From NCBI GenBank assembly GCA_024226315.1, contig JAAELT010000577.1, forward strand, positions 12,032 to 76,031: 64,000 nt of DNA. Reading direction: 5' to 3'. The stretch comes from a bacterium (GTDB lineage Bacteria; Acidobacteriota; Thermoanaerobaculia; Multivoradales; J023). Each line of letters begins with the position of its first letter. The stretch's first letter is position 1. Below, one piece after another: positions 6,700-63,730 of this stretch. A model generated the notes under the pieces. It was not told the DNA's origin, ran no database searches, and saw nothing but the letters and a program-made list of their open reading frames with translations. The position numbers and the translations under genes are program-made.

Positions 6700-6830
6700 C
6701 TGGTCAACTCCTACCCCCTACCCATGGAAGGAGTTTCACGGCTCTGACAACTCTATCCCTGGCGCCGGGGTAGGAGTTGTCGGGGCTCGGCAACCTGTTC
6801 CCTGACGTCAGGGTAGGAGTTGTCCGGCTC
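6700..6830. repeat. cluster of nested hairpin repeats of the GACAACTCC(T)ACCC / GGAAGGAGTT family in a 700-bp intergenic region
   Basis: gtcaactcctaccc (6703-6716) pairs with gggtaggagttgtc (6768-6781). An inner hairpin is ggaaggagtt-N13-aactctatcc (6726-6758). A perfect palindrome ccctgacgtcaggg lies at 6800-6813. A second gggtaggagttgtcc lies at 6811-6825. Confidence 0.6.
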
Positions 6831-17792: not shown

Positions 17793-17812
17793 AGCGAACG
17801 CGGGGGAGAAAG

Positions 17813-18952: not shown

Positions 18953-19057
18953 GCACATTTGGCCACCTTGATCCGCGCTGCGCGCCAGTCCCGCCCTGGG
19001 TTCGACGCCGTTAATCCGTTTGCGTCAAGGATCTCCGCGACCGGCGCCGGGCTCGTT

Positions 19058-20593: not shown

Positions 20594-20742
20594 GTTCGTC
20601 CTCCTCGATCTCGGCACTTCGTTCCAGCGGAACAGGGCGGTGAACACTGTACCACGGTCCCCGCCGACCTATCAGATCGTCCGAATACTCGGGCAATCTG
20701 ATAGGGTTGTTCGACAAATCCGCGGATCAGGGAGGCCGGCAC

Positions 20743-32798: not shown

Positions 32799-34646
32799 AT
32801 GCTGCCAACCCGTGTCGCCGTTGTCGCGATTGTGCTCTTGCTCGTTTCACTGCCCGTCCGCGCTTCGGTGGAGCCGGAGGAGGACTGGGCCACCCATGCC
32901 GAGGCCAGCGACTATCGCGCGACTCCGAGCTACGCCGAGACCATGGAGTTTCTGCGCCGTCTCGAGAGGCGCTCACCGCGGATCCAGCTCGCTACTTTTG
33001 GCCGCTCGCCCCAGGGGCGGGACCTGCCGCTGGTGATCGTCTCTGGGGAAGGGGCCTTCACGCCGGAGGCGGCGCACCGGCTCGGCAAGCCCATCGTGCT
33101 GATCCAGAACGGCATCCACTCCGGCGAGATCGACGGCAAGGACGCTTGCCTGGCCCTGCTGCGAGACCTGGCGACGGGCCGGCGACCCGACTTCGGGCAG
33201 GGCGTCACGCTGCTGATCGTCCCGATCTACAACGTCGACGGCCACGAGCGGACCTCGCCCCACAACCGGCCGAACCAGAACGGGCCGGTGGAGGGCATGG
33301 GTTTTCGCACCACCGCAGCCGGCTACGATCTCAACCGCGATCACCTGAAGCTCGAGTCGATGGAGGCGCGGGCGCTGATCGAGTTGGTCAATCGTTGGCG
33401 GCCGCACCTGCACGTCGACGATCACGTCACCAACGGCTCGGACCACGCCTGGGTCTTCACCTGGTCATGGGGCGAGGCGCCGCAACTGGCGGCCCCGGTC
33501 GCCGGCTGGCTGGCCGAGCACATGGGCAGCGTGCTCGACGCCGTCGAGGCTGCCGGCTACCGCACTGGCCCCTACGTGGGCCTGATCGACCGCAACGACC
33601 CGGCCAAGGGCTTCAGCTCCTGGGTGGGCGAGCCGCGCTATTCCGGCGGCTACTTCGCGCTGCGCCACCGGCCGTCGATCCTGGTCGAGATGCACGCCTA
33701 CAAGCCCTATCGCCAGCGCGTGCTGGCGTTGACCGAGTTCCTCGCGGCGCTGGTCGAGCGCGCCGGCGCCAGCGGCCGCCAGCTGGTCGAGGCGGTGGCC
33801 GCCGCCGAGGCCGCCACCGTGGCGCTCGGTGCCGCCGACGCCGAGTCCTCTGAGGTGGTGGTCGCCTGGGAGTCACACGATACCGGCGACACCATTCGCT
33901 GGCCGGTCTACGATTGGTCGTTCGAGCCGTCGCTGGCCCTGGGAGTGCCGATCCTGACCTTCGACCGCGGCAAGATCCGGGGCAGCGACCCGGCGGGCAT
34001 CGAGGTTCCCTGGATCCACGCCGGGCGCGCGGCCGAGACCGCGCCGCGCCCGCGTGGTTACCTGGTCGAGCCCGGCTGGCCGCAGATCGAGGAACGACTC
34101 ACTGCCCACGGCCTGGTGACCGCCCGCCTGAAGGAGGCCGTCGAGCTCGAGCTCGAGGTCTACCGCCTGGAGGATCCCGTCTTCGCCGAGGCGCCCTACC
34201 AGGGCCGCCACCGGCTGGACGAAGTAAGCCTCGCCCGCGTGACCGAGACCGTCTCGGTGCCGGCGGGCACCCTGTGGGTGCCCGCGAACCAGCCCGACTT
34301 CGAGGTGGCGGCGCAGCTGCTCGAACCCGAGGCGCCGGACTCACTGGTCTCCTGGGGCCTGACGTCGACCGTCTTCGAGCCCAAGGAGTACATCGACCCG
34401 CGGGTGCTGGAGCCGATCGTCCAGGAGCTGCTCCAAGACGACGAGGTGCGGGCCCGGTGGGAGGAAGCGCTCGAAGACGAGAGCTTCGCCGCCGATCCCA
34501 GGGCGCGCTGGATGTGGTGGTACCGCCAGACTGTCTACTGGGACGACACCGTCGGCCGCTGGCCGGCCTTGCGGGTAATGGGAGTCACGCCAGAGCTGTC
34601 GAACAGGGTGCGAAGACCAGAGTCGGCCCGCGCTGGTCGGCCCTGA
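32799..34646 (+). CDS. secreted M14-family zinc carboxypeptidase
   Basis: Signal peptide MLPTRVAVVAIVLLLVSLPVRA. Zn-binding HSGEIDG. LNRDHLKLES. N-terminal carboxypeptidase A-like domain plus a long C-terminal extension. Confidence 0.8.
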   Translation: MLPTRVAVVAIVLLLVSLPVRASVEPEEDWATHAEASDYRATPSYAETMEFLRRLERRSPRIQLATFGRSPQGRDLPLVIVSGEGAFTPEAAHRLGKPIVLIQNGIHSGEIDGKDACLALLRDLATGRRPDFGQGVTLLIVPIYNVDGHERTSPHNRPNQNGPVEGMGFRTTAAGYDLNRDHLKLESMEARALIELVNRWRPHLHVDDHVTNGSDHAWVFTWSWGEAPQLAAPVAGWLAEHMGSVLDAVEAAGYRTGPYVGLIDRNDPAKGFSSWVGEPRYSGGYFALRHRPSILVEMHAYKPYRQRVLALTEFLAALVERAGASGRQLVEAVAAAEAATVALGAADAESSEVVVAWESHDTGDTIRWPVYDWSFEPSLALGVPILTFDRGKIRGSDPAGIEVPWIHAGRAAETAPRPRGYLVEPGWPQIEERLTAHGLVTARLKEAVELELEVYRLEDPVFAEAPYQGRHRLDEVSLARVTETVSVPAGTLWVPANQPDFEVAAQLLEPEAPDSLVSWGLTSTVFEPKEYIDPRVLEPIVQELLQDDEVRARWEEALEDESFAADPRARWMWWYRQTVYWDDTVGRWPALRVMGVTPELSNRVRRPESARAGRP

Positions 34647-34977
34647 CAGGTTCGACTCGCACCAGGCAAGGCAGCAAACGGTGACCATGCCCCATGGTCT
34701 CGATGAAGGCCGGCCGTGCCGGGTCGTCACCCAGGCCGGCCCGGATCTGTGAGATGCAGCGCTGAACCGCCGCGTCGACCACGTGCGGCGTTCCCCAGAC
34801 CTCCGATTTGAGCTCGTCGTTGGGGACCACCGTTCCCCGATGCCGCGCCAGATAGCACAACACATCCATGGCGCGCGGCTCGAGCCGCACGTCACGGCGG
34901 CCATCGTTGACCAGGAACTCGGAGGGGTGGACGCTCCAGGAACCAATTCCTGAATCCGAAGGCCTCGTTTTTCTCAT
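34585..34977 (-). CDS. small winged-helix transcriptional regulator (OmpR/CadC-type trans_reg_C DNA-binding domain only)
   Basis: VRLEPRAMDVLCYLARHRGTVVPNDELKSEVWGTPHVVDAAVQRCISQIRAGLGDDPARPAFIETMGHGHRL matches the trans_reg_C consensus. No receiver domain. The 3' end overlaps the convergent M14 gene by about 60 bp, so the C-terminal extent is uncertain. Confidence 0.5.
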   Translation of the reverse strand: MRKTRPSDSGIGSWSVHPSEFLVNDGRRDVRLEPRAMDVLCYLARHRGTVVPNDELKSEVWGTPHVVDAAVQRCISQIRAGLGDDPARPAFIETMGHGHRLLPCLVRVEPVRADQRGPTLVFAPCSTALA

Positions 34978-35045
34978 CTGATAGGGAATTCGTACGAGAG
35001 CCAGTTCCGGATTCCTTGATCCAGGATTGCTATCCGGCCGCGCCG

Positions 35046-35274
35046 AACCGGGGGCGCTCGGGGTTGGGCTTGAGGCGGCCGAGCTCGATGCCGGTGTAGT
35101 AGTGGGCGAGGATGGAGCGGTAGCCGGCGCCGCGGACCGCCATGCCGAAGGCGCCGGCCTGGCACATGCCGACGCCATGGCCCCAGCCCTTGCCGCGGAA
35201 CACCCAGCCGGGCTCGCCGCCTCCGCCATTGGACGGCTGGGCCCAGAAGAGGGTGTCCCAGACGTCGAGGGTCC
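35046..35274 (-). repeat. diverged partial copy (about 230 bp, roughly 90% identity) of the 3' end of the SpoIID gene (original 36368..36596); in-frame translation ...[80 protein letters not shown]
   Basis: Direct alignment of 35046-35274 with 36368-36596. Substitutions are mostly synonymous or conservative (ASYRAILGHYY vs [11 protein letters not shown]). No upstream gene body. Confidence 0.75.
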
Positions 35275-35361
35275 TGGAAACCACCGTGCCCCGTTCCCGG
35301 ATTACCCTCATCAGGCGGAGTTCGATGTCGGCGGAGTGATCATCGACGCAAACTTGGGTGG

Positions 35362-35841
35362 TTACAGAATCTCTTCGAGCTTCGTGACGGGCGCGCGGTA
35401 GCCCTGAACGATCATGACGTCGAGCAGCTGGTTGCCCTCCTTCAGCGACAGCACACCGTTCTTGACGCATAGACCGAGGATGCCAACAGTGCCGGTGGTC
35501 GAGAGCCCCAATCTGCTCGCTGCCTTGCGAGCATCAAGGTCGTCAGTCACGATCACTTTGCCACGATGATGGGCGATCGCCAGGCAGCTTTTCTCGCCGG
35601 CTCCGAGCGAAGGTGGTAGCTCTTCAGCTGTCTTGTTCTCTTCGTCAGTAAGCTCGACGACAGTGAGGTCGTTCCAGGCCTCGGCAGGGACGCGGCCGCG
35701 TTCGACGCCGGCACGGTACTCACCTATCACGACCGCGGTGGTGCAGGCCGCATCGCCCCAGAGCCTGACGACCAGGTCTGGCCTACCGACCTTGGCGAGA
35801 TTCGACAACACGGTGTTGTCGAGGACGACCGACTGCGCCAC
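35362..35841 (-). CDS. PIN-like toxin (COG2405/DUF3368-type predicted nucleic-acid-binding PIN protein)
   Basis: N-terminus [25 protein letters not shown] conserved acidic position lies in [12 protein letters not shown]. Architecture and size are typical. Its start is 3 bp after the upstream antitoxin stop. Confidence 0.65.
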
Positions 35842-35843
35842 CG

Positions 35844-36278
35844 TCAGGAGAGAGTCGACTCCGCGATGAGGAGATCCTGCTTTGCGCCCTCACGATCGAT
35901 CGGAGCGTCGCGAAGGGGTAGGCCGAGACGCGAGAAGCGACCCCGCAGATCCAGCCAGGAGGTCCCCAGGACTTCTGCGGCTCGGGAGAGGCTGATGGCG
36001 CCGGACAGATAGTAGGCGAGGGCCGTTTCGGTTCGCGCCGTACCCGATAGACCGAGCAGCTTCGAGCCCTCCAGCCCCTGGCCCCGGTCGATCTGTGGGC
36101 GGTTGACGTAGTAGCAGATGACCGCCTTCAGGATCTCGAGATCGACAGGGTCGACGATGACGGCCTGGGGCTGACCGTGCTCTTCCACAACGATAGTTTC
36201 GCCTTGGCGAACGGCTCGGAGCACCCGGCCGGGGTCGCCGGCCAGCTCGTCTCGTCGGATGTGTCTGGCGGTTTTCAT
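35844..36278 (-). CDS. antitoxin: Phd/YefM-like N-terminus fused to UPF0175-type HTH C-terminus
   Basis: N-terminus MKTARHIRRDELAGDPGRVLRAVRQGETIVVEEHGQPQAVIV is Phd-like. C-terminus ALAYYLSGAISLSRAAEVLGTSWLDLRGRFSRLGLP is the UPF0175 motif. The upstream part of ORF-track entry 35844..36500 is out-of-frame read-through of the repeat. Confidence 0.6.
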   Translation of the reverse strand: MKTARHIRRDELAGDPGRVLRAVRQGETIVVEEHGQPQAVIVDPVDLEILKAVICYYVNRPQIDRGQGLEGSKLLGLSGTARTETALAYYLSGAISLSRAAEVLGTSWLDLRGRFSRLGLPLRDAPIDREGAKQDLLIAESTLS

Positions 36279-36351
36279 GGTCGTTCCTACCTGGAACGAG
36301 TGTAGCACCAGGTGGTCGGGGACCCTCAGGAGGGGACGAATCGCGTCGTCG

Positions 36352-38595
36352 CTAGCCGGTCTCGCCAAACCGGGGGCGCTCAGGGTTGGGCTTGAGGCGG
36401 CCGAGCTCGATGCCGGTGTAGTAGTGGCCGAGGATGGCTCGGTAGCTGGCGCCGCGGACGGCCATGCCGAAGGCGCCGGCCTGGCACATGCCGACGCCAT
36501 GCCCCCAGCCCTTGCCGCGGAACACCCAGCCGGGCTCGCCGCCTCCGCCGTTTGAGGGCTGCGCCCAGAAGAGGTTGTCCCAGACGTCGAGGGTCCAGCG
36601 CACCGCGAGGCCCTCGACCTCCAGACTCTCTCCGCCGGTGCCGAGGAGGCGCAGCTTGCCGACGCGGCCGGAGACGCCGCGCGCGACGACTTCGAAGCCC
36701 TCGAAGGGAAAGCCCGGGTACCGCGCCTGGACCGCGGAGCGCAGCTTGCGGGCGGAGATGAAGCGTGACCAGGTCTGCTTCGACACCTTGCCTGCCAGGC
36801 GCACCGGAGACGCCTCGACCGGCTGCACCAGGGCGATCAGATCGCCGCGGTGGCGGTAGAGGTCGAGCCGGTCGCCGGCCATGAGCTCCAGCTGACCGGC
36901 GCTCAAGCTGTCGCCGCGGCGCCTGAAGGTGGCGAAGTCGCTCGTCAGGTCGTAGGCGTGGCGGCCGGCCCGGTCCTTGACTTCCAGGCGGCCCTGGACC
37001 AGCCGCAAATAGCTGGTCCGCTGGCGCTCCACCACGCCCAGATAGGAGGCGAGCCGGAACAGCAGCTCTTCGACCTCGCCGTCGCCGGCCGCCTCCTCGC
37101 CGGTCCCGGCGAGCCACGAGCTGGAGACCAGGTAGGCGGCGAGCTCGCGCTCGCGTCCGCGCCAGTCGGCGGGAGGCTCTTCGAGCATCGTCTCGAGCTC
37201 CGCGCGAGTCGACCGCAGACGCCGGTCGAGAGCCAGGTCGTAGACCGAGGTGGCGAAGCGCAGGACCTCCTTGCGGCGCATCGAGCGCAAGCGGTCTTTC
37301 GGCACCGGCAGGTGGGCGAGCAGTGCCAGCTGTTCCATGCGCGCGGCCAGGCTCCGATGCCTCTTGCCGGCAGCGGGCGGCAGCAGGCGGCGGGTGAGGC
37401 CGGCGGGGAACGGGGTGCCCACGGCGGCACCGCCCTGCAGCCGACCGGCGCCGGACTCCAGGCACGGGACGCCCCGCAGGTAGGGGCCGGTCTTGAGCGG
37501 AAAGATCACCTCGACGTTCTCGGTGTGGCCGCCGCAGGTGGCGCCGTAGAAGGTCTCGGCCGGTTGGCCCTCGAACAACACCACCTGGCCGGCGGTCTCG
37601 GCGACCGCCCGGTCGGAGACCGGGTGCTCGACGGCCATGCCGCCGTAGACCTGGCAACGCGGGGTCGAGCAGATATCGTAGCCCTCGGCCTTGAACTCGT
37701 CCAGGCTGCGCACCGTGTAGGTTCGCGCCGCCACTGCCTGCGCCTTGAGCGCCTCCAGCCGGTCGAACAGCTCGGGGCCCATCTCCTTGGGCACCACGCC
37801 ACGAAGGTAATCCTCTAGCTCGATCTCGTTGATGATGTTGAGGTTGCCGCGCTCGTTCAGGAAGATCAGCAGCCGGCCTCGATAGCGCACGCCGTCGTAG
37901 GGAATGCCGACGCCTGCCGGCGCGGAGATCTCGAGCCAGCGGCCGGGGACGTCACGGCGCTCGCCGCCGAGGACGATCTCGAACGCCGGGTCTCGCAGGT
38001 CGCCGCCCTCGCTGGCGATCCAGCCCTTCTCCAGGCCGAGGCTCTGGAGGCGCCCCTGACCGGCTTCGGCCTCCTCGCGGGTGGCGAAGCGTCCGACGCG
38101 CACGCGGTAGAGATCGGTGCCGGCGTCGAAGACGGCATCGGCCGGCTGGCCGGTGGTGGCGGCGAGTCGCTCGGCGAGACCGATGGCCTGGCGCTCGTCC
38201 TTGAGTGCCGCCACCTGCAGGCGGTAGACGGCGCGCTCGGCCAGGGTGCCGGCGGGAGAGACGCTGGCGGTCTGCGAAAGCGGGAGCATCTCGCCGCCGG
38301 CGTCGAGCTCGAGCCTGGCGTCGCAGCACGGCAGGTCCACGGACCTGAGGTCGGTGGCCAGGCCGACGCGCACGACCAGCGGGCCGGTGGGGACGGGCGG
38401 TGGCGGCGGCGGCGGTGGCGGCACCCGGCGCGGTGGCGCCTCGCGGCGTGGTGGCGGCGGTGGCGGCGTGATCCGCTCCTCCGGCGGGCGCGGCTCGGGT
38501 TTCGAGACCGGCCTGGCGCCGGGGCGGCAGGAGACCAGCGCGATCGCGAATCCCAGAGCGAGACCCAGCGAACAGATCAGCGTACGGCGAGGCAT
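36352..38595 (-). CDS. SpoIID/LytB-domain cell-wall protein with SPOR domain and N-terminal Pro-rich linker (lipoprotein-like signal LVSC)
   Basis: SPOR: YRLQVAALKDERQAIGLAERLAATTGQPADAVFDAGTDLYRVRVGRFATREEAEAG. SpoIID: LEALKAQAVAARTYTV...[40 protein letters not shown] tract. Confidence 0.8.
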   Translation of the reverse strand: MPRRTLICSLGLALGFAIALVSCRPGARPVSKPEPRPPEERITPPPPPPRREAPPRRVPPPPPPPPPVPTGPLVVRVGLATDLRSVDLPCCDARLELDAGGEMLPLSQTASVSPAGTLAERAVYRLQVAALKDERQAIGLAERLAATTGQPADAVFDAGTDLYRVRVGRFATREEAEAGQGRLQSLGLEKGWIASEGGDLRDPAFEIVLGGERRDVPGRWLEISAPAGVGIPYDGVRYRGRLLIFLNERGNLNIINEIELEDYLRGVVPKEMGPELFDRLEALKAQAVAARTYTVRSLDEFKAEGYDICSTPRCQVYGGMAVEHPVSDRAVAETAGQVVLFEGQPAETFYGATCGGHTENVEVIFPLKTGPYLRGVPCLESGAGRLQGGAAVGTPFPAGLTRRLLPPAAGKRHRSLAARMEQLALLAHLPVPKDRLRSMRRKEVLRFATSVYDLALDRRLRSTRAELETMLEEPPADWRGRERELAAYLVSSSWLAGTGEEAAGDGEVEELLFRLASYLGVVERQRTSYLRLVQGRLEVKDRAGRHAYDLTSDFATFRRRGDSLSAGQLELMAGDRLDLYRHRGDLIALVQPVEASPVRLAGKVSKQTWSRFISARKLRSAVQARYPGFPFEGFEVVARGVSGRVGKLRLLGTGGESLEVEGLAVRWTLDVWDNLFWAQPSNGGGGEPGWVFRGKGWGHGVGMCQAGAFGMAVRGASYRAILGHYYTGIELGRLKPNPERPRFGETG

Positions 38596-54601: not shown

Positions 54602-57600
54602 ATGAATCCCGCTTCCCTCGCCGTTCGCCGCCCGATCACCACCGCCATGCTGCTGCTCAGCATCCTGCTGTTCGGCGGCATCGCGCTCACGCGCCTGCCG
54701 GTGGAGTTCCTGCCCGAAGTCGACATCCCGTTCATCGCCGTCGAGATCCCCTACGACAACACCAACCCGGCGCAGGTCGAGCGCGAGATCACCAAGCCGG
54801 TGGAGGAGATCCTGGCGACGCTGCCCGGCATCAAGCGGCTGGGCTCGGACTCCAACGCCGACGGCGCCTTCATCTTCCTGGAGTTCAACTGGGGCCACGA
54901 CCTCGACATCGTGCGCATGCAGGTGTCGGAGAAGATGGACCAGGTCGAGGGTGAGCTGCCCGAGCAGATCGGCGAGATCCGGATCTTCTCCTTCAACAGC
55001 TCCGACATCCCGGTAGTCGAGGCGCGCATCTCGGCCGAGGGCGTCGACATGTCGGAGAACTACCAGCTGCTCGAGGCCCGGGTGCTCAACCGCATCCGGC
55101 GCATCCCGGGCGTCGCCAAGGTCGAGCTCGACGGCGTCGAGCCGCGCGAGATCTTCGTCGAGCTGGTGCTCGACAAGGTCAAGGAGCACGGCGTCGACGT
55201 CGGCGAGCTGATCCAGTTGCTGAACGGTGCGTCTTCCAACCTGGTACTGGGCGAGGTCCAGGACGGAGGCCTGCGCTACACCGCCCGCGCCCTGGGCTCG
55301 TTCGAGAGCGTCCAGGAGCTGCGCGAGCTGGTGATCGACGAGCGCGGCCTGCGCCTGGCCGACATCGCCGAGATCAGTTACGAGGAGCCGCCGATCCGCT
55401 ACGGCCGGCACCTGAACCGCAAAGACGCCGTCGCCCTGACCGTGTTCAAGGAGTCCACCGCCAACACCGTCGAGGTGGTCAACGCGGTGATGGGCGTGAT
55501 CGAGAACGACATCGACGGCGACCCCCTGCTGCAGGGCGTCAGCCTGTTCGTGTGGCAGAACCAGGCCGAGCAGATCACGGGCGCCCTCAACGGCCTGACC
55601 CGCGCCGGCTTGATCGGCGCCCTGCTCGCCGTCCTGGTGCTCTACTTCTTCCTGCGCCGCCTTGGCTCGACGCTGATCGTCTCCATGTCGATTCCGTTCT
55701 CGATCATCGCCGCCTGCGGCGTGATGTATTTCATGGGCAAGACCCTGAACGTGCTGTCGATGATGGGATTGATGCTGGGCGTCGGCATGCTGGTCGACAA
55801 CGCCATCGTCATCCTGGAATCGATCGACCGCACCAAGCGCAGCGAGCCGGACCCGAAGAAGGCCGCGCTGAAAGGCACCAAGAGCGTCTCGATGGCGGTC
55901 ATCGCCTCGACCGCGACGTCGCTGATCGTCTTCCTGCCGCTGATCGTTGGGGGCGAGTCCGAGCTCACCGTCTGGCTCGGCGAGGTGGGCATCGCCATCG
56001 CCCTGGCGCTGGTCTGCTCGCTGGTCTCGTCACTGACCCTGATCCCGCTGATGACCAGCCGCTTCCTGCCGGCCGGCAAGTCGAAGCCGATTCCGCTGAT
56101 GGCCCGCACCGAAGACCGCTACGTGCATCTGCTGCACTGGACGCTGCGGCACAAGCTGCGGACCTTCCTGCTGATCGTCGGCGGCGCCGGCTTCGGCTTC
56201 CTGCCGTTCTTCGCCGGCTGGGTGGACATGAGCCAGTTCTCCGGCGCGGTCAACGAGCGCCTCTACCTGGACTACGAGTTCACCGACTTCGTCTACAAGT
56301 CCCAGGCCGAGGACGTGGTCGACGTCGTCGAGCAGCACCTCGAGCCACAGCTCGAGGAGCTGGGCGTCGCCTCGATGTACAGCTTCTACACCTCCAACCG
56401 GGCCGGCACCACGTTGACCCTGGCGCGCAAGGACCTGGGCGACAAGGAGGTCAAGAAGCTGCGCCAGAAGATCCGCGACGGCCTGCCCGAGATCCCGGGC
56501 GTCAAGCTGGCGTTCTTCGAGGACGCTGACTCGGGCGGTGGCTCGACCTACTTCTCGGTCAACTTCTTCGGCCAGGATTCAGGCGTGCTGGCGAAGTTCG
56601 GCGACGAGGCCAAGCGGCGGCTCGAGACCGTCGAGGGCGTGCAGGACATCACCACTTCGTTCGGCAAGAGCCGCAAGGAGATCCAGGTTCAGGTCGACCG
56701 CGACAAAGCGGCGCGCTTAGGGCTGACCGCCCAGGAGGTGGCCGACACCTTCTCCTTCACCCTCGGCAGCTTCCGCCTGCCGCGCTTCAACGACGGCAAG
56801 CGCGAGGTGGAGACCTCGCTCGGGCTGCGCATCGTCGACCGCGAGAACCTGGCGGACCTCAAGGAGATCCCGTTCCGTGACGTCGACGGCCGGCCGGTGA
56901 CCCTGGGCGACGTCGCCACCTTCGAGGTGGTGGAGAAGCCCGAGGAGATCGAGCGCCAGGACCGCAAGGTGCGCGCCGCGGTGCGGGCCACCTACGAGGG
57001 CGAGAACTGGGACGAGGCGCGCGAGGAGATCACCGCCCTGATGGACGCCTTCGACCTGCCGGGCGGCTATTCCTGGTCGTGGAACCGGCGCATGATCGAG
57101 CAGGACCAGCAGGGCGCCGAGATGGGCGTCAACATGCTGCTGGCGCTGGTGCTGATCTACCTGGTGATGGCGTCGCTGTTCGAATCGCTGGCGCAGCCGT
57201 TCTCGATCCTGTTCTCGATCCTCTTCGCCCTGCCCGGCGTTGCCTGGCTGCTGGCCGCCACCGACACGCCTTTCAACCTGATGTCGTGGATCGGCTTCCT
57301 GATCCTGATGGGCATCGTGGTCAACAACGGCATCGTGTTGCTGGATCACATGAACCAGCTGCGCAAGGAAGGCCTGGGCATCGAGGAGTCCATCCTCATG
57401 GCCGGCCGCGACCGCATGCGAGCCGTGCTGATGACCGCCTCGACCACCATCATCGGCCTCCTGCCATTGGCCATCGGCGGCTCCCGTGTCGGCGGCTTGT
57501 TCTACTATCCGCTGGCCATCACCGTCATGGGCGGACTGATGTCCTCGGCGGTGCTGACCCTGGTGGTGCTGCCCTACATCAACTGGAACGTCGAGTTCGT

Positions 57601-57703
57601 GGCGGCGTGGATCCGGCGGCTGTGGCGGGAGTCCGGGGCGGTGCGGTCGCCGCGTCGGGTGGAGTCGGCTCGGCCGGTCGAGACCGTCGAAGTGGTGGGT
57701 TGA
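54602..57703 (+). CDS. RND efflux transporter permease, second of tandem pair (MdtC-like)
   Basis: MNPASLAVRRPITTAMLLLSILLFGGIALTRLPVEFLPEVDIP. About 45% identity to the upstream paralog in conserved blocks. The tandem arrangement is as in MdtABC. Confidence 0.9.
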   Translation: MNPASLAVRRPITTAMLLLSILLFGGIALTRLPVEFLPEVDIPFIAVEIPYDNTNPAQVEREITKPVEEILATLPGIKRLGSDSNADGAFIFLEFNWGHDLDIVRMQVSEKMDQVEGELPEQIGEIRIFSFNSSDIPVVEARISAEGVDMSENYQLLEARVLNRIRRIPGVAKVELDGVEPREIFVELVLDKVKEHGVDVGELIQLLNGASSNLVLGEVQDGGLRYTARALGSFESVQELRELVIDERGLRLADIAEISYEEPPIRYGRHLNRKDAVALTVFKESTANTVEVVNAVMGVIENDIDGDPLLQGVSLFVWQNQAEQITGALNGLTRAGLIGALLAVLVLYFFLRRLGSTLIVSMSIPFSIIAACGVMYFMGKTLNVLSMMGLMLGVGMLVDNAIVILESIDRTKRSEPDPKKAALKGTKSVSMAVIASTATSLIVFLPLIVGGESELTVWLGEVGIAIALALVCSLVSSLTLIPLMTSRFLPAGKSKPIPLMARTEDRYVHLLHWTLRHKLRTFLLIVGGAGFGFLPFFAGWVDMSQFSGAVNERLYLDYEFTDFVYKSQAEDVVDVVEQHLEPQLEELGVASMYSFYTSNRAGTTLTLARKDLGDKEVKKLRQKIRDGLPEIPGVKLAFFEDADSGGGSTYFSVNFFGQDSGVLAKFGDEAKRRLETVEGVQDITTSFGKSRKEIQVQVDRDKAARLGLTAQEVADTFSFTLGSFRLPRFNDGKREVETSLGLRIVDRENLADLKEIPFRDVDGRPVTLGDVATFEVVEKPEEIERQDRKVRAAVRATYEGENWDEAREEITALMDAFDLPGGYSWSWNRRMIEQDQQGAEMGVNMLLALVLIYLVMASLFESLAQPFSILFSILFALPGVAWLLAATDTPFNLMSWIGFLILMGIVVNNGIVLLDHMNQLRKEGLGIEESILMAGRDRMRAVLMTASTTIIGLLPLAIGGSRVGGLFYYPLAITVMGGLMSSAVLTLVVLPYINWNVEFVAAWIRRLWRESGAVRSPRRVESARPVETVEVVG

Positions 57704-57881
57704 GTTTCACTCGCCCTGAGTCTCCCAGCCCGAGAGCTCGTCTCCCAGCCCCTGCCCTCGCTGTAGGCCTCGGCCCGCAGCTCGGGCTCGTCCTGACTGT
57801 AGGGCACCAGTTCGCCTAAACGCCGTTTCGAACTCGTACGTATTGGCAGGTGTACCGGGTGTTCGATTTCAGGAGTCGTAG

Positions 57882-59999
57882 ATGCTCGATGAGGTGCTAC
57901 CGGCGACACGATCCGGCGGTGTACGCTGCTCGAAGGGGCGGTCTCACCGTGGCGGTCTGCTCCTCGTCTGCGCCCTCCTGACGCAGCCAGCGTCGGCGGG
58001 GGCTCGAGAGGAACAGAGCGCGCCAGTCGTGCCGCCCGCTATCCAGCACCTACACAGCGCCCATCGGCTGATAGAGCTCGGTCTTCCGGACTTCGCCTTG
58101 GAGCATCTCCTGGAGATCGATCACGAGGTTCTGCCCGAGAGTGGTCTCTCGCCTTACACCGCGCAGATCGCGTATCTCGCCGCGAGACTCGACGTCCTCG
58201 GCGAGGCGCTCGAAACTCTCACCGCGTCGAACCTGACCGCCGAGCGTCTGCGGCCCTTCGCCGCCACCTGGAACGCCAGGGCCGTGGTCGCGATTCGCGA
58301 CGGCCGGGTTTCCGAGGCGCTCGAGGCCTGGGACCAGAGCCTCGAGCGCGAGCCATCGTTCGGAGAGCGACGTACGATCTTCCGGTCGGCGATCGCGCGG
58401 ATCGGGAACACGGACGCGGGATACATCGAGGTTGACCCGGAGGTCCAGGGAGGTGCCTTGAGGTCGTTCTTGGAGACCTGGGGCAAGCGCACTTCTTTGG
58501 GGCTCGACCCCGAGGTGGTCGAGCTTCTCTTCGCCCTAGAGAAGAAGCTGGACCCCGAAGGCCCTGACGCGCAGCTCTGGGCCGAACGCTATCTCACGCT
58601 CACCCAGGCGACTCCGCTCGCCCTCTATCGCCGGGGGGCTCTGGAGATGGCGCGCAGGCAACCGGACATGGCCTTGCCCTGGTTTCTCTGGGCGGCTCAT
58701 ACGGACAAGTTCGCATCGGACCTGTCGCCGAAGAGTTGGAGATCCCTCGCAGTGGTTTACAGAGAGCTCGGATGGTGCGATCGAGCCGCCGAGGCGTGGG
58801 AGCTCGCCCTGGCGCAGGGACGGCCTCCGTGCCAGCCGGCGGCAAGGCGCTCGACGAATTTCGAGGAGTGCGTCGACTGGCACGACCAACTTCTGGCCTA
58901 TTCGCCGGAGCGAATGATCGTCTTCTGGCGCGGCAGCTGGCAGGATTCCGTGCCCGACCTGCACATCTGGAGGAGTCGATGCCGCTGGCCCGAGCCCAGT
59001 CCGTTCGCGCACATGTCCGACTCGTACGATTGCAGCCGCAATCGGCGACCTCGCCTGGCGGAAAGGCAGCTGGATCGCCAGGGGCCCGGGAGTTTTCCCA
59101 CTCGCCTGCTTTGCGCCCTGAACCAGGCGAAGCTCATGTTCCCGGCGCTCGGTCGTCGCTTCGACGACGAGCTCCTAACGCGTAGGCTCTCAGAGGTGCC
59201 CGCCGACCAGCGCTCGAGCTTGTGGGAGGCGAGGGCTCTCTTCAGCCTGCGACAGGGTGATGTGGACCAGGCGATGGCCTACTTCTGGAACGTTCTCGAG
59301 CACGATCCATTCGCGCGGCGGAAGCGCGACCGTTGGAGAAGGTTCTCGCGTGGTCTGTCGAGAAGTCCGGTGGCGCGAGGAGATCGGGTCGCGAGGTTCT
59401 TGCGCGACACGTTCGACCACCATGTGAGCACCGAGGAGCGGCCTGGCCTCTACCGGGTCCATCTCGCCACCCATCTGAGGAGAGTGGCTCCGAGCTCGAG
59501 CATCACCCTGCGCTTGGTCGACGAGATTCTGAGCTCGCCGTTGCCCCATGACGGATCCCTCTCGATGTTCCGGACGACGATCGAGCTCGACCTCGATCGC
59601 CCCGCGGACGCGCTTCCCCACCTGCTGCAGGCCTACGAGGAGCTCGGAACGCGTGAGCTCCCTGCCTTGCAGCCCGACCGGGGGAGGTACCGTGAGATCG
59701 CGGGGACGTTGGTGAGCGTCTACAGCCGTTTGCGTTGGTGGGATTTGGCCCTGGACATCGCGGCGACGCTCGATTCCGAGATTCCCGAGCTGTCGGCTCT
59801 CGATCCGGCGGATATTCTCGAATCGAGCTTGCCGGAACAGTGCCGTGCCCTGCGGTCGCGATTGGAGAAGGGACGTGGTGCCAGCCTGATTCGGACCGAA
59901 GGTGAATGGCATCGGGAGCGTCTGAGAATCCTGGCCGAGTGGGAGGGTGCATGTACTTCGCTGCGGCCGGCAGAGCGAGAATCCTCTCCCGCGTCGTAG
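57882..59999 (+). CDS. hypothetical protein (705 aa, N-terminal signal-like segment, helical/TPR-like). It is cargo of the first insertion module downstream of the RND gene.
   Basis: Long ORF with coding bias. LLLVCALLTQPASAGA is signal-like. It lies between the RND gene stop and the duplicated RND 3'-end copy. No family recognised. Confidence 0.5.
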   Translation: MLDEVLPATRSGGVRCSKGRSHRGGLLLVCALLTQPASAGAREEQSAPVVPPAIQHLHSAHRLIELGLPDFALEHLLEIDHEVLPESGLSPYTAQIAYLAARLDVLGEALETLTASNLTAERLRPFAATWNARAVVAIRDGRVSEALEAWDQSLEREPSFGERRTIFRSAIARIGNTDAGYIEVDPEVQGGALRSFLETWGKRTSLGLDPEVVELLFALEKKLDPEGPDAQLWAERYLTLTQATPLALYRRGALEMARRQPDMALPWFLWAAHTDKFASDLSPKSWRSLAVVYRELGWCDRAAEAWELALAQGRPPCQPAARRSTNFEECVDWHDQLLAYSPERMIVFWRGSWQDSVPDLHIWRSRCRWPEPSPFAHMSDSYDCSRNRRPRLAERQLDRQGPGSFPTRLLCALNQAKLMFPALGRRFDDELLTRRLSEVPADQRSSLWEARALFSLRQGDVDQAMAYFWNVLEHDPFARRKRDRWRRFSRGLSRSPVARGDRVARFLRDTFDHHVSTEERPGLYRVHLATHLRRVAPSSSITLRLVDEILSSPLPHDGSLSMFRTTIELDLDRPADALPHLLQAYEELGTRELPALQPDRGRYREIAGTLVSVYSRLRWWDLALDIAATLDSEIPELSALDPADILESSLPEQCRALRSRLEKGRGASLIRTEGEWHRERLRILAEWEGACTSLRPAERESSPAS

Positions 60000-60088
60000 G
60001 CTTCGCGGGGCGCGGACGCCCGATGGGTGAACCTCGGCGACCAGGACCTCGCTCGGGGCGCCTCGAATCGCCGACGTAATGAGTCGCC

Positions 60089-60338
60089 GGCCTCCTGCCC
60101 CTGGCCCTGGGCGGCTCCCGTGTCGGCGGGCTGTTCTACTACCCGCTGGCGATCACCGTCATGGGCGGGTTGATGTCCTCCGCGGTGCTGACCCTGGTGG
60201 TGCTGACCTACATCAACTGGATCGTCGAGTTCGTGGCGGAGTGGCTGAAGCGGCTGTGGCGGGAGTCGGGGGTGGTGCGGGCTCCGCGTCGGGCGGAGCC
60301 GGCGCCGGTAGGCGAGACCGTCGAGGCGGTGGGGTGAG
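60089..60338 (+). repeat. diverged copy (about 250 bp, roughly 88% identity, in-frame, with stop) of the 3' end of the second RND gene (original 57455..57703)
   Basis: The alignment is in frame. The copy encodes LLPLALGGSRVGGLFYYPLAITVMGGLMSSAVLTLVVLTYINWIVEFVAEWLKRLWRESGVVRAPRRAEPAPVGETVEAVG* against the original GLLPLAIGGSRVGGLFYYPLAITVMGGLMSSAVLTLVVLPYINWNVEFVAAWIRRLWRESGAVRSPRRVESARPVETVEVVG*. Confidence 0.8.
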
Positions 60339-60367
60339 CCGCTGAGCGCCTGTGATCGCGAATCCGA

Positions 60368-60607
60368 TCAAGCCTGCTCGTAGGCGCTCAAGAAGTCGTC
60401 TCTGGTGATCTTCGACTGTCTCAAGATGGTCCGGAGGGTGGACGCCTTGAGGCGGCGATGGTTGGGCATCGTCAGAGGCGTTTTCGTGCCGTCTGCATTC
60501 TCGCGAACCATGGCGATGTGGTTGCCTTCGCGGACGATCACGAAGCCGACTGACCCCAGCGCTTTGACGACCCGCTTCTTCGGGGCATCGACGGGGAACT
60601 TCGGCAT
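60368..60607 (-). CDS. hicA: HicA-family mRNA interferase toxin
   Basis: MPKFPVDAPKKRVVKALGSVGFVIVREGNHIAMVRENADGTKTPLTMPNHRRLKASTLRTILRQSKITRDDFLSAYEQA matches the YcfA/HicA consensus (GSH-like segment EGNH, trailing helical region). Confidence 0.7.
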   Translation of the reverse strand: MPKFPVDAPKKRVVKALGSVGFVIVREGNHIAMVRENADGTKTPLTMPNHRRLKASTLRTILRQSKITRDDFLSAYEQA

Positions 60608-60832
60608 CTAGACCGCGACGGCCATCTCGGCAACGAAGACCTCGCTGGCCTCGTCTTCTTCCTCGAGGACTTCTCGGCCGAAGGTCTCTACGTGGAACTC
60701 GATGGCGGACTTCGCATCCGCTAGCGCCTCTTCGTACGTGTCGCCTTCAGCAACCACGACTCCTTTGAGCCCGACCGGATAGGCGACATAGCCGTCGGCG
60801 TGTTTCTCGACAATGATCTTGATGTTCTTGAC
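60608..60832 (-). CDS. hicB: HicB-family antitoxin (UPF0150)
   Basis: GTG start preceded by a GGAGGAG RBS. VKNIKIIVEKHADGYVAYPVGLKGVVVAEGDTYEEALADAKSAIEFHVE. The stop abuts the hicA ATG. The ORF-track entry extends upstream without support. Confidence 0.65.
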   Translation of the reverse strand, partial: VKNIKIIVEKHADGYVAYPVGLKGVVVAEGDTYEEALADAKSAIEFHVETFGREVLEEEDEASEVFVAEMAVAV

Positions 60833-60863
60833 CACTGGGGAACTCCTCCGGTTGGAAGGCGTG

Positions 60864-61136
60864 CTAATTGCGCTGAGTAGCCCGGTGGGCATCGGCGAGA
60901 TCCTGCTCGAGCTCTTCCGGGGCCTCTCCGAAGGGGGAGAGGCCATAGCGACTCAACAAGAAGAGGAAGGTGAAACGAGGCATCCCGGCGAGGCTGGCCG
61001 CCAGCCCCGTGCTCAGCCGTCCCGTCTTGTAGAGCTGCAATGCCAGCAGGAGGGGAGCCTCCGCCTCGAACTCCTCGGGCTCCTGCTGGAGAGCCCACAA
61101 GACTTCGGATGGGTAGTCGATGGTGAGGGTCTTCAT
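60864..61136 (-). CDS. UPF0175-family small HTH protein (antitoxin-type) without adjacent PIN partner
   Basis: MKTLTIDYPSEVLWALQQEPEEFEAEAPLLLALQLYKTGRLSTGLAASLAGMPRFTFLFLLSRYGLSPFGEAPEELEQDLADA is a UPF0175 match (LS.G.AA.LAGM.R..F...L...G). Confidence 0.5.
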   Translation of the reverse strand: MKTLTIDYPSEVLWALQQEPEEFEAEAPLLLALQLYKTGRLSTGLAASLAGMPRFTFLFLLSRYGLSPFGEAPEELEQDLADAHRATQRN

Positions 61137-61458
61137 CGACAGAGAGCCTATCACCCCAGGGTGCGGGGAGCCCGACGGCTCCCCGCGCGGGGCACTGACT
61201 TCAGTCGGCCCAGAGATAGCTCTAAAGGTGCCGGCCGAATCGGCAGAAGTTGCGGCGGGTCGTCCGGCAGTTAGTCTTAGGGTCGGCTGGGGTACGCCGC
61301 CTTCAGCTGCTTGCGCACCTTGGCGAGGCCCCGGACACGGCAAGGCGGCGAGGCCGGATACTTCTGTGAGACCACTCGACAAGGGGATCTTCTGCACGAC
61401 CCCGGTCTCCTTGTCCACCCTCAGCAGCACGCCGTTTGAAGGGGCGGTCGCGGCCCAG

Positions 61459-61740
61459 AGGGTGCCGTCGCTGAGCGCGGCTGTACATGATGTCAATGCA
61501 TCCGTTGTCACCGACCGGGGTCAAGTCTCCATTCCGGCTCATCTCCGCAAAGAGCTCGCTTTGACCAAGGGCCAACGCCTTCTCTGGCGGAAGACAGGTG
61601 AGCGCGAGCTCCGGATCGTAGTTCTCGAGCCTCCGGCACCCCGTGGCGCCCAGGCCATGCGCGGTTTCGCCCGACGATTCCGCGCCGAGCCTCGGACGAC
61701 GGCCGAGTGGATGGCTGAGCTGCGGGCAGGCGAGAGCTGA
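61459..61740 (+). CDS. vapB: VapB-type antitoxin (AbrB/MazE/SpoVT swapped-hairpin domain), GTG start
   Basis: SVVTDRGQVSIPAHLRKELALTKGQRLLWRKTGERELRIVVL is the SpoVT/AbrB fold signature. Its stop overlaps the vapC ATG (ATGA). The exact start is uncertain. Confidence 0.55.
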   Translation, partial: RVPSLSAAVHDVNASVVTDRGQVSIPAHLRKELALTKGQRLLWRKTGERELRIVVLEPPAPRGAQAMRGFARRFRAEPRTTAEWMAELRAGES

Positions 61741-62207
61741 TGACCTGGGTGGTCGACACCTGCATGTTGATCGACATTCTGGAGGACGATCCGAGGTTTG
61801 GCGAGGCTTCGGCTCAGTTCTTCGATCACCACACCAGCGATGGTCTGGTCGTCTGCCCGGTGACCTACGCCGAGCTGGCACCCGCCTTCCGAGGCAACCT
61901 GACTCTTCAAGACGAATTCCTCGATGGTATTGGAGTCGACTGCCGAGAGGATTGGGTCCGGCAGGACACTCTCAAAGCGCATGAAGCCTGGAGTGCTCAC
62001 ATCCGGCGGCGGCGTGGCGGCCAAGCGCCCAAGCGGCCTCTGGCCGACATCCTGATCGGCAGCTTCGCCCTCCGCTTCCAGGGCTTGATGACTAGAAATC
62101 CGGACGGTTTTCGGACCGCCTTCCCCTCTCTCGAGCTTCGAGTTCCAATCGTCCCGGAGAACGATGATCTTGCAGCTGATCAGGACCGGGACGCTCCCCA
62201 GCCTTGA
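61740..62207 (+). CDS. vapC: VapC-type PIN-domain toxin
   Basis: MTWVVDTCMLIDILEDDP (first Asp). Conserved acidic residues lie in LVVCPVTYAEL and ADILIGSFAL. PIN-like size and architecture. Confidence 0.75.
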   Translation: MTWVVDTCMLIDILEDDPRFGEASAQFFDHHTSDGLVVCPVTYAELAPAFRGNLTLQDEFLDGIGVDCREDWVRQDTLKAHEAWSAHIRRRRGGQAPKRPLADILIGSFALRFQGLMTRNPDGFRTAFPSLELRVPIVPENDDLAADQDRDAPQP

Positions 62208-62277
62208 GCCACTCCGTGACGCGATCGTCGAGCTCGGCCAGGCAGTCGGCGTCCCAGGTGACCGGCTTGTCGCGGCG

Positions 62278-62343
62278 GCCGTCTCGGCAGGTGCGGGCTC
62301 CGCGTCGGGTGGAGCCGACTCGGCCGGTCGAGACCGTCGAAGC
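62278..62343 (+). repeat. third, short (about 66 bp) copy of the extreme 3' end of the RND gene, including stop
   Basis: ggtgcgggctccgcgtcgggtggagccgactcggccggtcgagaccgtcgaagcggtggggtga aligns with 57640-57703 and with 60275-60338. Confidence 0.65.
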
Positions 62344-62482
62344 GGTGGGGTGAGCGACGTCTGATCGAGCCTTCGCGGCCTCCCGAGCTTCCGCGACCGC
62401 TACGGGTTCTGCTAGACTTCCTCACGAAGGGTCACGCCGCAACGCGGTGTGAGACGGACAACGGCAGGACCAGGAAAGCATC

Positions 62483-63091
62483 ATGCCTCCATCGACACCG
62501 AGCCCCTCGACGGTCGCGTACCTGCACGCGCATGGTTTGCAGGTCACTCCGGAGCAGTTGGACGGCCTGGTCCAGGAGGCGATCGACCGTCTGCAGCAAG
62601 AGCTCTTTCGCTCCGATCCGCGGCGCGAGCTCTCCCGGGAGGAGATCGAGATCCTGGAGGCCGGAGGATTCGACCTCGAGCCCGTCGACCTGGGCGGCGA
62701 GGATCCCCTCGCGCGAGCGGCGGCGCTCTATTCCGGGCTGCTCAAGACCAGTCTCGACACCGCCGCCGCGGCGCGGCTGCTGGGAGTCGATCCGAGCCGC
62801 ATACGGCATCGGTTGACGTCTCGTCCGCCGAGCCTCTACGGAATCCGTCTCGGGTCGGGGTGGCGCCTGCCGCGCTTCCAGTTCGACGGCGAGAGACTCG
62901 TTCCCGGCATCGGCGAGGTGGTGGCGGAGCTCGATCCCGAGCTCCATCCCGCGACAGTCCACAACTGGTTCGTCTCGTCCAATCCAGACCTCGTGGCCGA
63001 GAGCCTCGCCGAAGGGCTGCTGAGCCCGCGCGACTGGCTGTGTCACGGATTCCCGCCGCGAGCCGTCGCCGCGCTGGCGAGGCATCTGTAG
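62483..63091 (+). CDS. putative Xre/MbcA/ParS-like antitoxin partner of the RES toxin (HTH-containing)
   Basis: Lies immediately upstream of the RES gene (15-bp gap). HTH-like AAARLLGVDPSRIRHRLTSRPPSLYGIRLGSGWRLPRF. The gene-order convention is antitoxin then RES. Confidence 0.45.
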   Translation: MPPSTPSPSTVAYLHAHGLQVTPEQLDGLVQEAIDRLQQELFRSDPRRELSREEIEILEAGGFDLEPVDLGGEDPLARAAALYSGLLKTSLDTAAAARLLGVDPSRIRHRLTSRPPSLYGIRLGSGWRLPRFQFDGERLVPGIGEVVAELDPELHPATVHNWFVSSNPDLVAESLAEGLLSPRDWLCHGFPPRAVAALARHL

Positions 63092-63106
63092 CCAGATTCG
63101 ACGCAG

Positions 63107-63730
63107 GTGCCCAGGTTTCCGGAGCCGCCGACGGACGCGGAGCTGGCCGAAAGCTCGCCCGAGCGGAAGATTCTGCCGGCCGGCACCCTGCTCTGGCGCG
63201 TGTACTTCCGGGGCGGAGATCATCCGACGTACTGGGATACCTTCCGCTCGTTCGGCCCCACGACCGGCCGGTTCGATCATCACCCGCCGCCGTCTTCGGT
63301 GCAGGAGCGGAGAATCTTGTACAGCGCCGAGCAGGGCCTGACCTGCCTCGCGGAAGTGTTTCAGGACAGCAGGATCATCGATCGAACGGCTCGCAAACCG
63401 TGGATCGTCGCCTTCCGCACCCGGCAGGACCTGACGCTGCTCGATCTGACGGGCGACTGGCCGACGCGAGCCGGCGCCTCCATGGTCATCAGCTCCGGGC
63501 CGCGGCCTCGGGCGCAGCGTTGGTCGCGAGCGATCTACTCCGCGTTCGCGGACGTCGACGGGCTCTACTACCCCTCTTCCATGGCGGCCAGCCGCCCTGC
63601 TCTGGCGCTCTACGAGCGCGCCGGGTCGGCGATACCCACCGCTCCTGCCTTTCACCGGCCGCTGTCGGATCCCACGCTGCTCACGTTGCTGCGCAACGCG
63701 GCGCGGGATCTGGGCTATGCCGTGCTTTGA
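63107..63730 (+). CDS. RES-domain toxin (NAD+-targeting RES family)
   Basis: LWRVYFRGGDHP...GRFDHHPP (R). ILYSAEQGLTCLAEVF (E). WIVAFRTRQDLTLLDLT (S). Order and spacing match the RES consensus. Confidence 0.75.
   Translation: MPRFPEPPTDAELAESSPERKILPAGTLLWRVYFRGGDHPTYWDTFRSFGPTTGRFDHHPPPSSVQERRILYSAEQGLTCLAEVFQDSRIIDRTARKPWIVAFRTRQDLTLLDLTGDWPTRAGASMVISSGPRPRAQRWSRAIYSAFADVDGLYYPSSMAASRPALALYERAGSAIPTAPAFHRPLSDPTLLTLLRNAARDLGYAVL

Follow-up and report, generated by a model that had tools for sequence, protein, structure and literature searches.

Why do genes of several unrelated toxin-antitoxin (TA) families crowd into 3.4 kb of one bacterial genome, and by what route did they come together there? 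The question is raised by positions 60339-63730 of a 64,000-nt stretch of contig JAAELT010000577.1 (assembly GCA_024226315.1), here called the window, which comes from an uncultured Acidobacteriota (Thermoanaerobaculia-like). Gene calls were based on six-frame open reading frames (ORFs) and reading of the sequence, and domain calls on Pfam curated cut-offs, complemented by NCBIfam, PADLOC and a sequence search of the PDB. The region holds seven short genes, three on the minus strand and four on the plus strand, and five of the seven pass the Pfam cut-offs (HicA, UPF0175, VapB, VapC and RES). The dense cluster of type II TA genes, from different families and in both orientations, that a sequence-only reading had described at these positions is therefore present. 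As a cluster it is ordinary, made up of new members of known families, and in itself it adds little. The noteworthy feature is a set of scars, repeated ends of the preceding RND efflux gene, which are referred to as relics and which divide the cargo into blocks. The region is probably a TA islet that occupies a recombination hotspot and that grew by insertion-duplication, one event after another, with the RND gene end as the stretch of homology.

Relic gene ends in the window and in a relative

The islet lies on the 3' side of an RND (AcrB-type) efflux permease gene (54602-57703, plus strand; Pfam ACR_tran, 615 bits), the second permease of an MFP-RND-RND operon. The live 3' end of this gene (57454-57704, plus strand), which comprises the last transmembrane helix, the cytoplasmic tail and the stop codon, served as the reference copy, and a repeat search with alignment revealed two further, partial copies on the same strand. 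Relic 1 (60088-60338) is a 251-nt copy of the RND 3' end that is 87% identical to 57454-57704 and, with a G+C content at third codon positions (GC3) of 0.94, core-like in composition. Relic 2 (62274-62354) is an 81-nt copy of the tail, 85% identical to 57624-57704 and 82% identical to 60258-60338. Read in the 3' direction from the RND gene, the series is live end, block A, relic 1, block B (hicBA, the UPF0175 gene and vapBC), relic 2 and block C. Block A (57705-60087, plus strand) contains the gene for a 705-aa TPR-repeat protein (57882-59999; Pfam TPR_2/TPR_1; GC3 0.78), for which tblastn gave no match in the compared loci L001-L031 or in those of the relatives L032 and L033. Block C consists of a winged-helix/RES gene pair followed by a hairpin array that leaves the window. 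All three copies of the RND 3' end terminate at the TGA stop codon plus 1-2 nt, and their left ends differ. Position 60339, at which the sequence-only reading had begun the islet, is the first base beyond relic 1.

The same arrangement was found at two other genes of the window. Beyond the SpoIID gene (36352-38595, minus strand) come a block of 1.06 kb and then a 263-nt relic of the SpoIID 3' end that is 91-93% identical (within 35029-36613). The cargo of this block is only an antitoxin gene (Phd with a weak UPF0175 match) and a DUF3368 PIN gene, and it is the cleanest minimal example of the pattern. The BNR-repeat gene (19058-20647, minus strand) has a 93-nt relic of its 3' end (16290-16382 versus 19055-19147, 89% identical), and, because two saccharopine-dehydrogenase-type genes on the opposite strand separate the gene from this relic, relic-flanked cargo is not always TA.

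A related picture is seen in L033, a 9.3-Mb contig, in which VapBC directly follows the RND gene and a 170-nt RND fragment (89% identical) comes next. The same contig has a 190-nt direct repeat (16299-16488 and 17743-17932, 97% identical) that flanks a PIN/antitoxin pair, the PIN gene being frameshifted as read by eye. This repeat spans the upstream region and the first 124 nt of an acetyltransferase gene, and it is apparently a mirror-image, 5'-end version of the relic pattern and the product of a recent event. Four or five relic-type events thus fall in ~87 kb of two genomes, versus none in ~390 kb: when 31 loci from less closely related bacteria (members of Thermoanaerobaculia, other Acidobacteriota and a few further phyla) were compared with themselves, no such repeat appeared. 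Two repeats of another kind, a 336-nt tandem duplication (14607-15272, 82% identical) and a 42/84-nt tandem repeat array (15919-16149), also lie 3' of the RND relic of L033.

The RND relics are gapless and in frame relative to the live end, and the four relics of the window (two of RND, one each of SpoIID and BNR) together carry 73 substitutions and zero indels. In the last transmembrane helix, relic 1 and the live copy are identical at the protein level despite ~19 nucleotide changes. The ratio of non-synonymous to synonymous substitution rates (dN/dS) is 0.44 for RND relic 1 as a whole, 0.36 for its membrane part and 0.60 for its 26-codon tail; it is 0.31 for the SpoIID relic, 0.26 for the BNR relic and 1.6 for RND relic 2, which at 81 nt offers few sites. 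When the differences were polarised with five relatives as outgroups, relic 1 carried the derived state at 19 of them and the live copy at 16, and each of these two sequences is ~77% identical to the next relative, L032. Because the relics are gapless, in frame, constrained and as diverged as the live ends, they would be alleles that worked as gene ends in sister lineages, and the simplest reading of the sequences is that they are displaced functional 3'-end alleles rather than local duplicates that have since decayed.

In-place tandem duplication of the gene end with subsequent neutral decay, or very long target-site duplications left by a transposition-like insertion, would also place direct repeats on both sides of each block, and the 97% identical pair of L033 could be recent. 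The cargo blocks, however, are mutually unrelated, which argues against a tandem duplication of blocks, and neutral decay is at odds with the equal numbers of changes in relic and live copy, with the purely synonymous changes in the transmembrane part and with 73 substitutions unaccompanied by an indel. We know of no transposase for which target-site duplications of 81-263 nt have been described, and we regard this explanation as very unlikely. Two other candidates were rejected. A diversity-generating retroelement does not agree with repeat mismatches of all types, which are not adenine-specific, and no reverse transcriptase domain was found among the scanned genes. Silent cassettes that vary the pump C-terminus were considered unlikely, since no plausible function is evident for such variation in a cytoplasmic tail and since the pattern also occurs at SpoIID and at the 5' gene end of L033.

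A variable site and a probable mode of insertion

The MFP-RND-RND operon is syntenic in relatives, and in L001, L004, L032 and L033 rpoD is also found upstream. What follows the stop codon of the RND gene differs from one close relative to the next. In L032 (RND identity 86%) there are BrnT (85 bits), a small ORF, UPF0175 (71 bits) and a PIN gene, truncated as read by eye, with its antitoxin; L033 (82%) has VapBC, L046 (81%) small unnamed ORFs and L045 (78%) a TIR-BNR protein. By this comparison of sequences the site is a hotspot. No downstream gene is common to the loci of these close relatives, and only the left flank is conserved, with no shared right flank; the more distant relatives L001, L004 and L009 have one conserved neighbour in common and no relics. 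Because L032 and L033 carry TA genes and L046 small ORFs at this place, the clustering of TA genes appears to be tied to the RND 3' flank and not to chance. The cargo genes have a GC3 of 0.68-0.84, versus 0.88-0.95 in neighbouring core genes, and judged by this contrast the cargo DNA is of foreign, horizontally acquired origin. L046 also contains a 71-nt direct repeat (5040-5110 and 7067-7135, 87% identical) that flanks a 2-kb block 3' of the RND gene, just upstream of a YidC-like gene.

From the relics and their order we infer at least two successive insertions at the RND gene end. Each piece on its arrival would have brought along a homologous copy of the RND 3' end or used one for recombination; one copy would have stayed fused, keeping the gene intact, while the other was left beyond the new cargo as a relic, and either copy may be the one that arrived with the cargo. 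The most likely process is RecA-type homologous recombination, as a Campbell-type single crossover of a circle made up of gene end and cargo or, in an alternative form, as a double crossover with a relic as the second homology arm. Sister lineages would be the donors of the DNA, and the process could do without a dedicated integrase. Homologous recombination via the gene end is suggested because several unrelated genes have served as targets, some blocks are very small, and the relics, which are allelic, differ in their left ends. That relics are found at gene ends would follow from the fact that a target survives only if the homology includes the true end of the gene.

The nature of the cargo may belong to the same picture. 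The HicA and VapC families are RNases that are neutralised by HicB and VapB, and RES toxins degrade NAD+. Each predicted toxin of the islet (HicA, VapC and RES) would, from what is known of these families, be restrained by its neighbouring labile antitoxin, so that each module would resist its own loss. Blocks flanked by direct repeats are easily deleted, and addictive cargo should therefore be over-represented among the survivors. The present contents amount to two apparently intact modules (VapBC and winged-helix/RES) and to hicBA in the place of the PIN gene of an older UPF0175/DUF3368 module.

The main rival to homologous recombination is site-specific integration, either of small integrase-less elements mobilised in trans or of larger elements that have since decayed, with an attP that mimics the RND 3' end. 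The geometry fits tandem arrays of integrative elements, with an intact gene and with blocks split by partial 3' ends that stop at the same point; relics that resemble functional alleles are what an element-borne mimic is expected to look like, and the distal end of the array lies outside the window. Integrase, excisionase and transposase domains, however, were found neither in the ORFs taken as genes of the window and scanned nor in the visible parts of L032, L033, L045 and L046, and a tRNA and Rfam search of the window gave no hits. Three genes within 64 kb show the pattern, for which three target specificities would be needed, and the blocks go down to 1.06 kb and a single TA pair. The left ends of the relics vary (lengths of 81, 251 and 263 nt) with no common junction motif visible by eye, and one repeat of L033 spans a 5' gene end instead. 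On balance we think site-specific integration unlikely.

An integron had been one suggestion of the sequence-only reading, which took the density of TA modules as typical of sedentary integron arrays or defence islands. TA genes are typical cargo of chromosomal integrons, but the scanned window genes contain no IntI or other tyrosine recombinase domain, and an inverted-repeat check, for which no dedicated attC model was used, showed no attC-like imperfect palindromes at the block boundaries. The blocks are, moreover, multi-gene, in both orientations and equipped with their own upstream regions, and what separates them are relics of the RND 3' end. It is extremely unlikely that a sedentary integron or a cassette array lacking an integrase is the explanation. 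The defence-island label fared no better, PADLOC giving only a weak match of UPF0175 to PDC-S70 (20 bits). A plasmid or phage vehicle was rejected as well: one weak 65% match to a Rhodobacter megaplasmid and no phage match were obtained, and no known plasmid or phage was found to carry a close copy of the islet.

Several points weigh against an assembly by homologous recombination at the RND gene. Neither an excised circle nor a donor strain nor an unoccupied site in the same population was observed, and a metagenome scan for the RND tail gave no match. The right flank of the islet lies outside the window, and an integrase just beyond it is possible. Homologous recombination gives no account of how the first unit of gene end and cargo arose. 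The relic of L033 is an internal fragment of the RND gene instead of its very 3' end, which makes it necessary to assume a subsequent deletion. Among the gene assignments, PIN is 0.9 bits over its cut-off and HicB is under its own. Finally, the window comes from a metagenome-assembled contig. The last point leads to the possibility of an assembly artefact, in which strain variants with different DNA downstream of the RND gene were joined through the common gene end; relic lengths of 81-263 nt are within read or k-mer range, and the relics look like co-existing strain alleles. Against this, at the block-to-relic junctions nothing is shared with the live gene by which an assembly graph could have been bridged. 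The pattern occurs at three loci of the window and in the independent L033 contig (ctg322095_55x_c, a name that suggests 55x coverage), and another independent assembly (L041) holds 565 nt identical to the interior of block B. There is little chance that the islet arose in assembly.

A broader proposal would extend recombination at gene ends to the lineage, taken as the source genome and its 9.3-Mb relative. Here small blocks, mostly TA pairs, might spread as recombinase-free insertion-duplication cassettes with a gene-end handle of 80-260 nt, a suggestion that we make tentatively and that may well prove wrong. The handle would be copied from the end of a neighbouring core gene and would permit entry into the orthologous gene end by ordinary homologous recombination; the resulting repeat would let the block loop out and move again, and addictive cargo would guard the block against deletion through its own repeats. 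If true, this would be a frequent, lineage-specific route of gene gain. The relic ends may be read as a record of how an islet free of mobile genes was assembled, insertion by insertion, from diverged sister lineages. If the pattern is general in the lineage, small blocks bracketed by copies of a gene end at 80-97% identity would be a simple sequence signature by which recombination-driven gene gain could be found and dated in metagenome genomes, and it would offer a concrete explanation for the piling up of TA genes at such sites.

Integration with replacement of a gene's 3' end is known from phage 21 and e14 at icd of E. coli and from island arrays at tRNA genes, and ICESt1/3 and cis-mobilisable elements accumulate at the 3' end of fda in Streptococcus thermophilus; arrays of this type can grow at the gene-proximal end. 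The likeness to the present case is that the target gene is intact and that a partial 3' copy, slightly diverged, comes after each block. The icd, tRNA and fda systems, however, use a tyrosine integrase, either encoded by themselves or borrowed, that has a defined core site, whereas none is visible within the window, where blocks are as small as one TA pair and several unrelated genes are affected within 64 kb. Orphan cdiA-CT/cdiI and rhs-CT/rhsI arrays, which are thought to form by homologous recombination via the conserved part of the gene, have the same layout of gene, cargo, displaced 3' fragment and more cargo. Their displaced 3' ends encode variable toxins and their cargo consists of immunity genes, whereas the 3' ends of the islet are a conserved pump tail without evident variable function and its cargo consists of self-contained TA modules. 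The minimal mobile elements of Neisseria likewise place different cassettes at one site by conserved genes across strains, are exchanged through homologous recombination and have no recombinase of their own, but they lie between two conserved flanks and lack duplicated gene ends, while here only the left flank is conserved. The term "minimal mobile elements" occurs in PMC8627216.

TA islets that lack mobile-element genes and spread by homologous recombination at flanking core genes have been described in Photorhabdus (PMC13617665; Belot et al., Mol Biol Evol 2026), with gain-and-erosion dynamics in which the islets erode by toxin loss. These islets agree with the present one in several respects: several unrelated type II modules occupy a small, high-turnover region beside core genes, mobile-element genes are absent, the content differs between related genomes, and erosion by toxin loss leaves an orphan antitoxin. 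They differ in that relic allelic 3' ends lie between the blocks here, while the searched text of PMC13617665 contains no scars under "direct repeat", "remnant" or "duplication", and in the host, Photorhabdus there and an uncultured Acidobacteriota here. A specific account of relic-flanked TA insertions was not found in the literature searched.

Toxin-antitoxin modules of the islet

When the module labels of the sequence-only reading were checked against profile models, those of HicA, UPF0175, VapB, VapC and RES held, and those of HicB and of an "Xre" partner of RES did not reach a match. The HicA toxin (79 aa; 60368-60607, minus strand) scores 44.5 bits with HicA_toxin PF07927, for which the cut-off is 27. 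The HicB-like antitoxin (75 aa from GTG 60835; 60608-60835, minus strand) scores 18.7 bits with HicB_lk_antitox PF15919, short of the cut-off of 27; its label rests mainly on position, in that the gene's stop codon directly adjoins the start of hicA. A GGAGGAG Shine-Dalgarno motif precedes GTG 60835, and an alternative in-frame start is ATG 60892. At 75 aa and with no ribbon-helix-helix or helix-turn-helix (HTH) match in Pfam, the HicB-like protein is devoid of the C-terminal DNA-binding domain that is found in many, although not all, HicB proteins. The orphan antitoxin UPF0175 (60864-61136, minus strand) scores 76.3 bits with PF03683 (cut-off 27.9).

UPF0175 has no adjoining PIN gene, as had been observed from the sequence, and the expectation that its usual partner is a PIN protein of the DUF3368/COG2405 type also proved right. 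In L047-L050, UPF0175 homologues that are 74-76% identical are followed, with a 29-nt overlap, by a gene for a 166-aa DUF3368 PIN-like protein, and in L034 a decayed DUF3368 PIN-like gene follows the homologue. Nucleotide similarity to the UPF0175/DUF3368 module ends at the start codon of the toxin (ATG CCC at 60892-60887), and the ORF that begins at this lost PIN start (60892) continues in frame into HicB. Because the similarity stops at the toxin start and the ORF runs into HicB, the PIN toxin appears to have been replaced in place by hicBA. By the same alignments, the "solo" UPF0175 gene is what is left of an eroded UPF0175/DUF3368-PIN module, the PIN gene being reduced to its start codon. 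Here one toxin cassette (hicBA) would have taken the place of another (PIN) under an antitoxin gene that was kept, a natural example of such an exchange. Module shuffling with the 35-kb locus, which the presence of the likely partner type only 25 kb away had been taken to hint at, is supported neither by the loss of PIN in place nor by a BLASTP comparison of UPF0175 with the antitoxin at 35844-36278, which gave nothing at E <= 100.

UPF0175, HicB and HicA could alternatively form a working three-gene module, in which UPF0175, an HTH protein, supplies DNA binding and autoregulation and is no dead orphan. Control of hicBA by UPF0175 is plausible because the short HicB protein has no DNA-binding domain. 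The three genes share a strand and are separated by 27 nt and 0 nt, the ORF from 60892 retains the overlap geometry of the original module as it enters HicB in frame, and UPF0175 is intact at 76 bits. The homologues at 74-76% identity, however, are paired with a DUF3368 PIN gene or a decayed one and not with hicBA. The gene order was not found in any second genome, the only other copy (L041) being a 565-nt contig that is 100% identical to the window, and the Shine-Dalgarno motif before GTG 60835 suggests that HicB starts independently. A functional triad is conceivable but doubtful, and in-place replacement of the toxin is the reading that we prefer. In L032 (10928-11492, minus strand), an antitoxin-like ORF with no Pfam match is followed by a PIN-like ORF that runs into the UPF0175 gene on the opposite strand, and UPF0175 is there also without an adjacent DUF3368 toxin. 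Read by eye, this PIN-like ORF looks like a truncated PIN gene, with an erosion resembling that of the window.

The intergenic region between the divergent UPF0175-hicBA and vapBC operons (61137-61461) possibly contains a beta-propeller gene fragment on the minus strand. A minus-strand ORF (60864-61511) extends upstream of UPF0175, and its stretch 61137-61511 is beta-propeller-like (DUF6923, E 0.007, not significant); judged by this resemblance, it may be a gene fragment carried along from an earlier location of block B. VapB (92 aa from GTG 61462; 61462-61740, plus strand) is an antitoxin of the AbrB/SpoVT/MazE fold that scores 28.8 bits with MazE_antitoxin PF04014 (cut-off 24.7) and 25.4 bits with the NCBIfam model TIGR01439 AbrB, which is under the cut-off of that model. 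VapC, a PIN-domain toxin (155 aa; 61740-62207, plus strand), is marginal at 24.5 bits with PIN PF01850 (cut-off 23.6). The two genes share one base in TGATG (61738-61742). A promoter and terminator scan of the islet was uninformative and showed no sigma-70 consensus sites.

The catalytic residues of the three predicted toxins were assigned by eye, because a PDB sequence search with RES, VapC, HicA and the RES partner gave no usable relatives for residue-level alignment. The inactivating substitutions that had been named as a possible objection were not seen: VapC has the acidic tetrad D6, E45, D103 and D122, RES has the signature R55, E83 and S157/S158, which is invariant in a 76%-identical homologue from L043, and in HicA His30 sits in a G-N-H motif.

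The RES-domain toxin (207 aa; 63107-63730, plus strand) matches RES PF08808 at 52.8 bits (cut-off 23.2) over HMM positions 2-149 of 157 and has no sequence-detectable relative in the PDB. It is preceded by the gene of its putative antitoxin, a 202-aa winged-helix protein (62483-63091, plus strand) for which Pfam, NCBIfam, PADLOC and a sequence search of the PDB gave no match. This partner has 269 homologues, none of which, among those listed, has a Pfam domain on record; the few listed matches assigned to a named organism come from Thermoanaerobaculia or other Acidobacteriota. A homologue with 75% identity lies directly upstream of RES in L043 and L044, which count as one independent locus because the contigs overlap and are 99.99% identical. 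Nucleotide similarity to the module of the window extends from ~62410 (L042) to the RES stop codon (L043/L044), and on these comparisons the winged-helix/RES pair is a conserved two-gene module.

An AlphaFold model of the RES partner, built from 39 sequences, had a mean pLDDT of 84. Its only significant fold match in the PDB was to the winged-helix protein Rv2175c (E 1.8e-4), whereas MbcA was reached with E 1.2 and a probability of 0.11. Members of the RES-partner family gave weak matches to HTH_17 and Rv2175c_wHTH. When 39 family members were scanned, the MbcA/ParS domain PF09722 was absent from the 25 families listed (37 matched in all), and PF20432 matched only 5 of the 39, weakly. The 202-aa protein probably acts as the antitoxin and regulator of RES; it is of an Rv2175c/HTH_17-like type outside the Xre/ParS/MbcA family, and the "Xre" label first given to it was dropped. 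As in the RES-Xre systems MbcT-MbcA (PMC6436930) and NatT-NatR (PMC11535050), a RES toxin with the R/E/S positions is encoded just 3' of the gene of a small DNA-binding protein. Unlike in these systems, the partner is a 202-aa protein with a winged helix of the Rv2175c/HTH_17 type and matches neither the Xre HTH_3 domain nor the C-terminal MbcA/ParS domain. It would define an unnamed antitoxin family that is missed by current models.

Hairpin repeats and other genes of the window

Block C continues into a palindromic array (63814-64000) that begins 84 nt past the RES stop codon and runs off the end of the window. At least five units of the form TCCAACCGACC-N10-GGTCGGTTGGA follow one another at a 42-nt spacing, each with 11-bp arms (TCCAACCGACC / GGTCGGTTGGA) and a 10-nt loop; folding gave a z-score of -6.0. 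No further copy of the unit is present in the window, and a scan of the metagenome collection gave no hit. The array could be a cluster similar to repetitive extragenic palindromes or a series of protein-binding sites. A second family of hairpin-containing repeats, ~43-66 nt long and with the core GACAACTCC...GGAGTTGTC, is present at 6722-6832 and 16197-16262, one copy lying ~30 nt beyond the BNR relic.

The SpoIID relic is followed directly by a small stand-alone gene (34588-34956, minus strand) that encodes only an OmpR/CadC-type Trans_reg_C winged helix (53 bits). An AAA ATPase gene (20946-22310, plus strand; AAA_21, AbiEii-like) adjoins the BNR gene and the gene of a 1386-aa kinase-TPR protein, and its product matches the PADLOC candidate defence protein HEC-01A with 314 bits.

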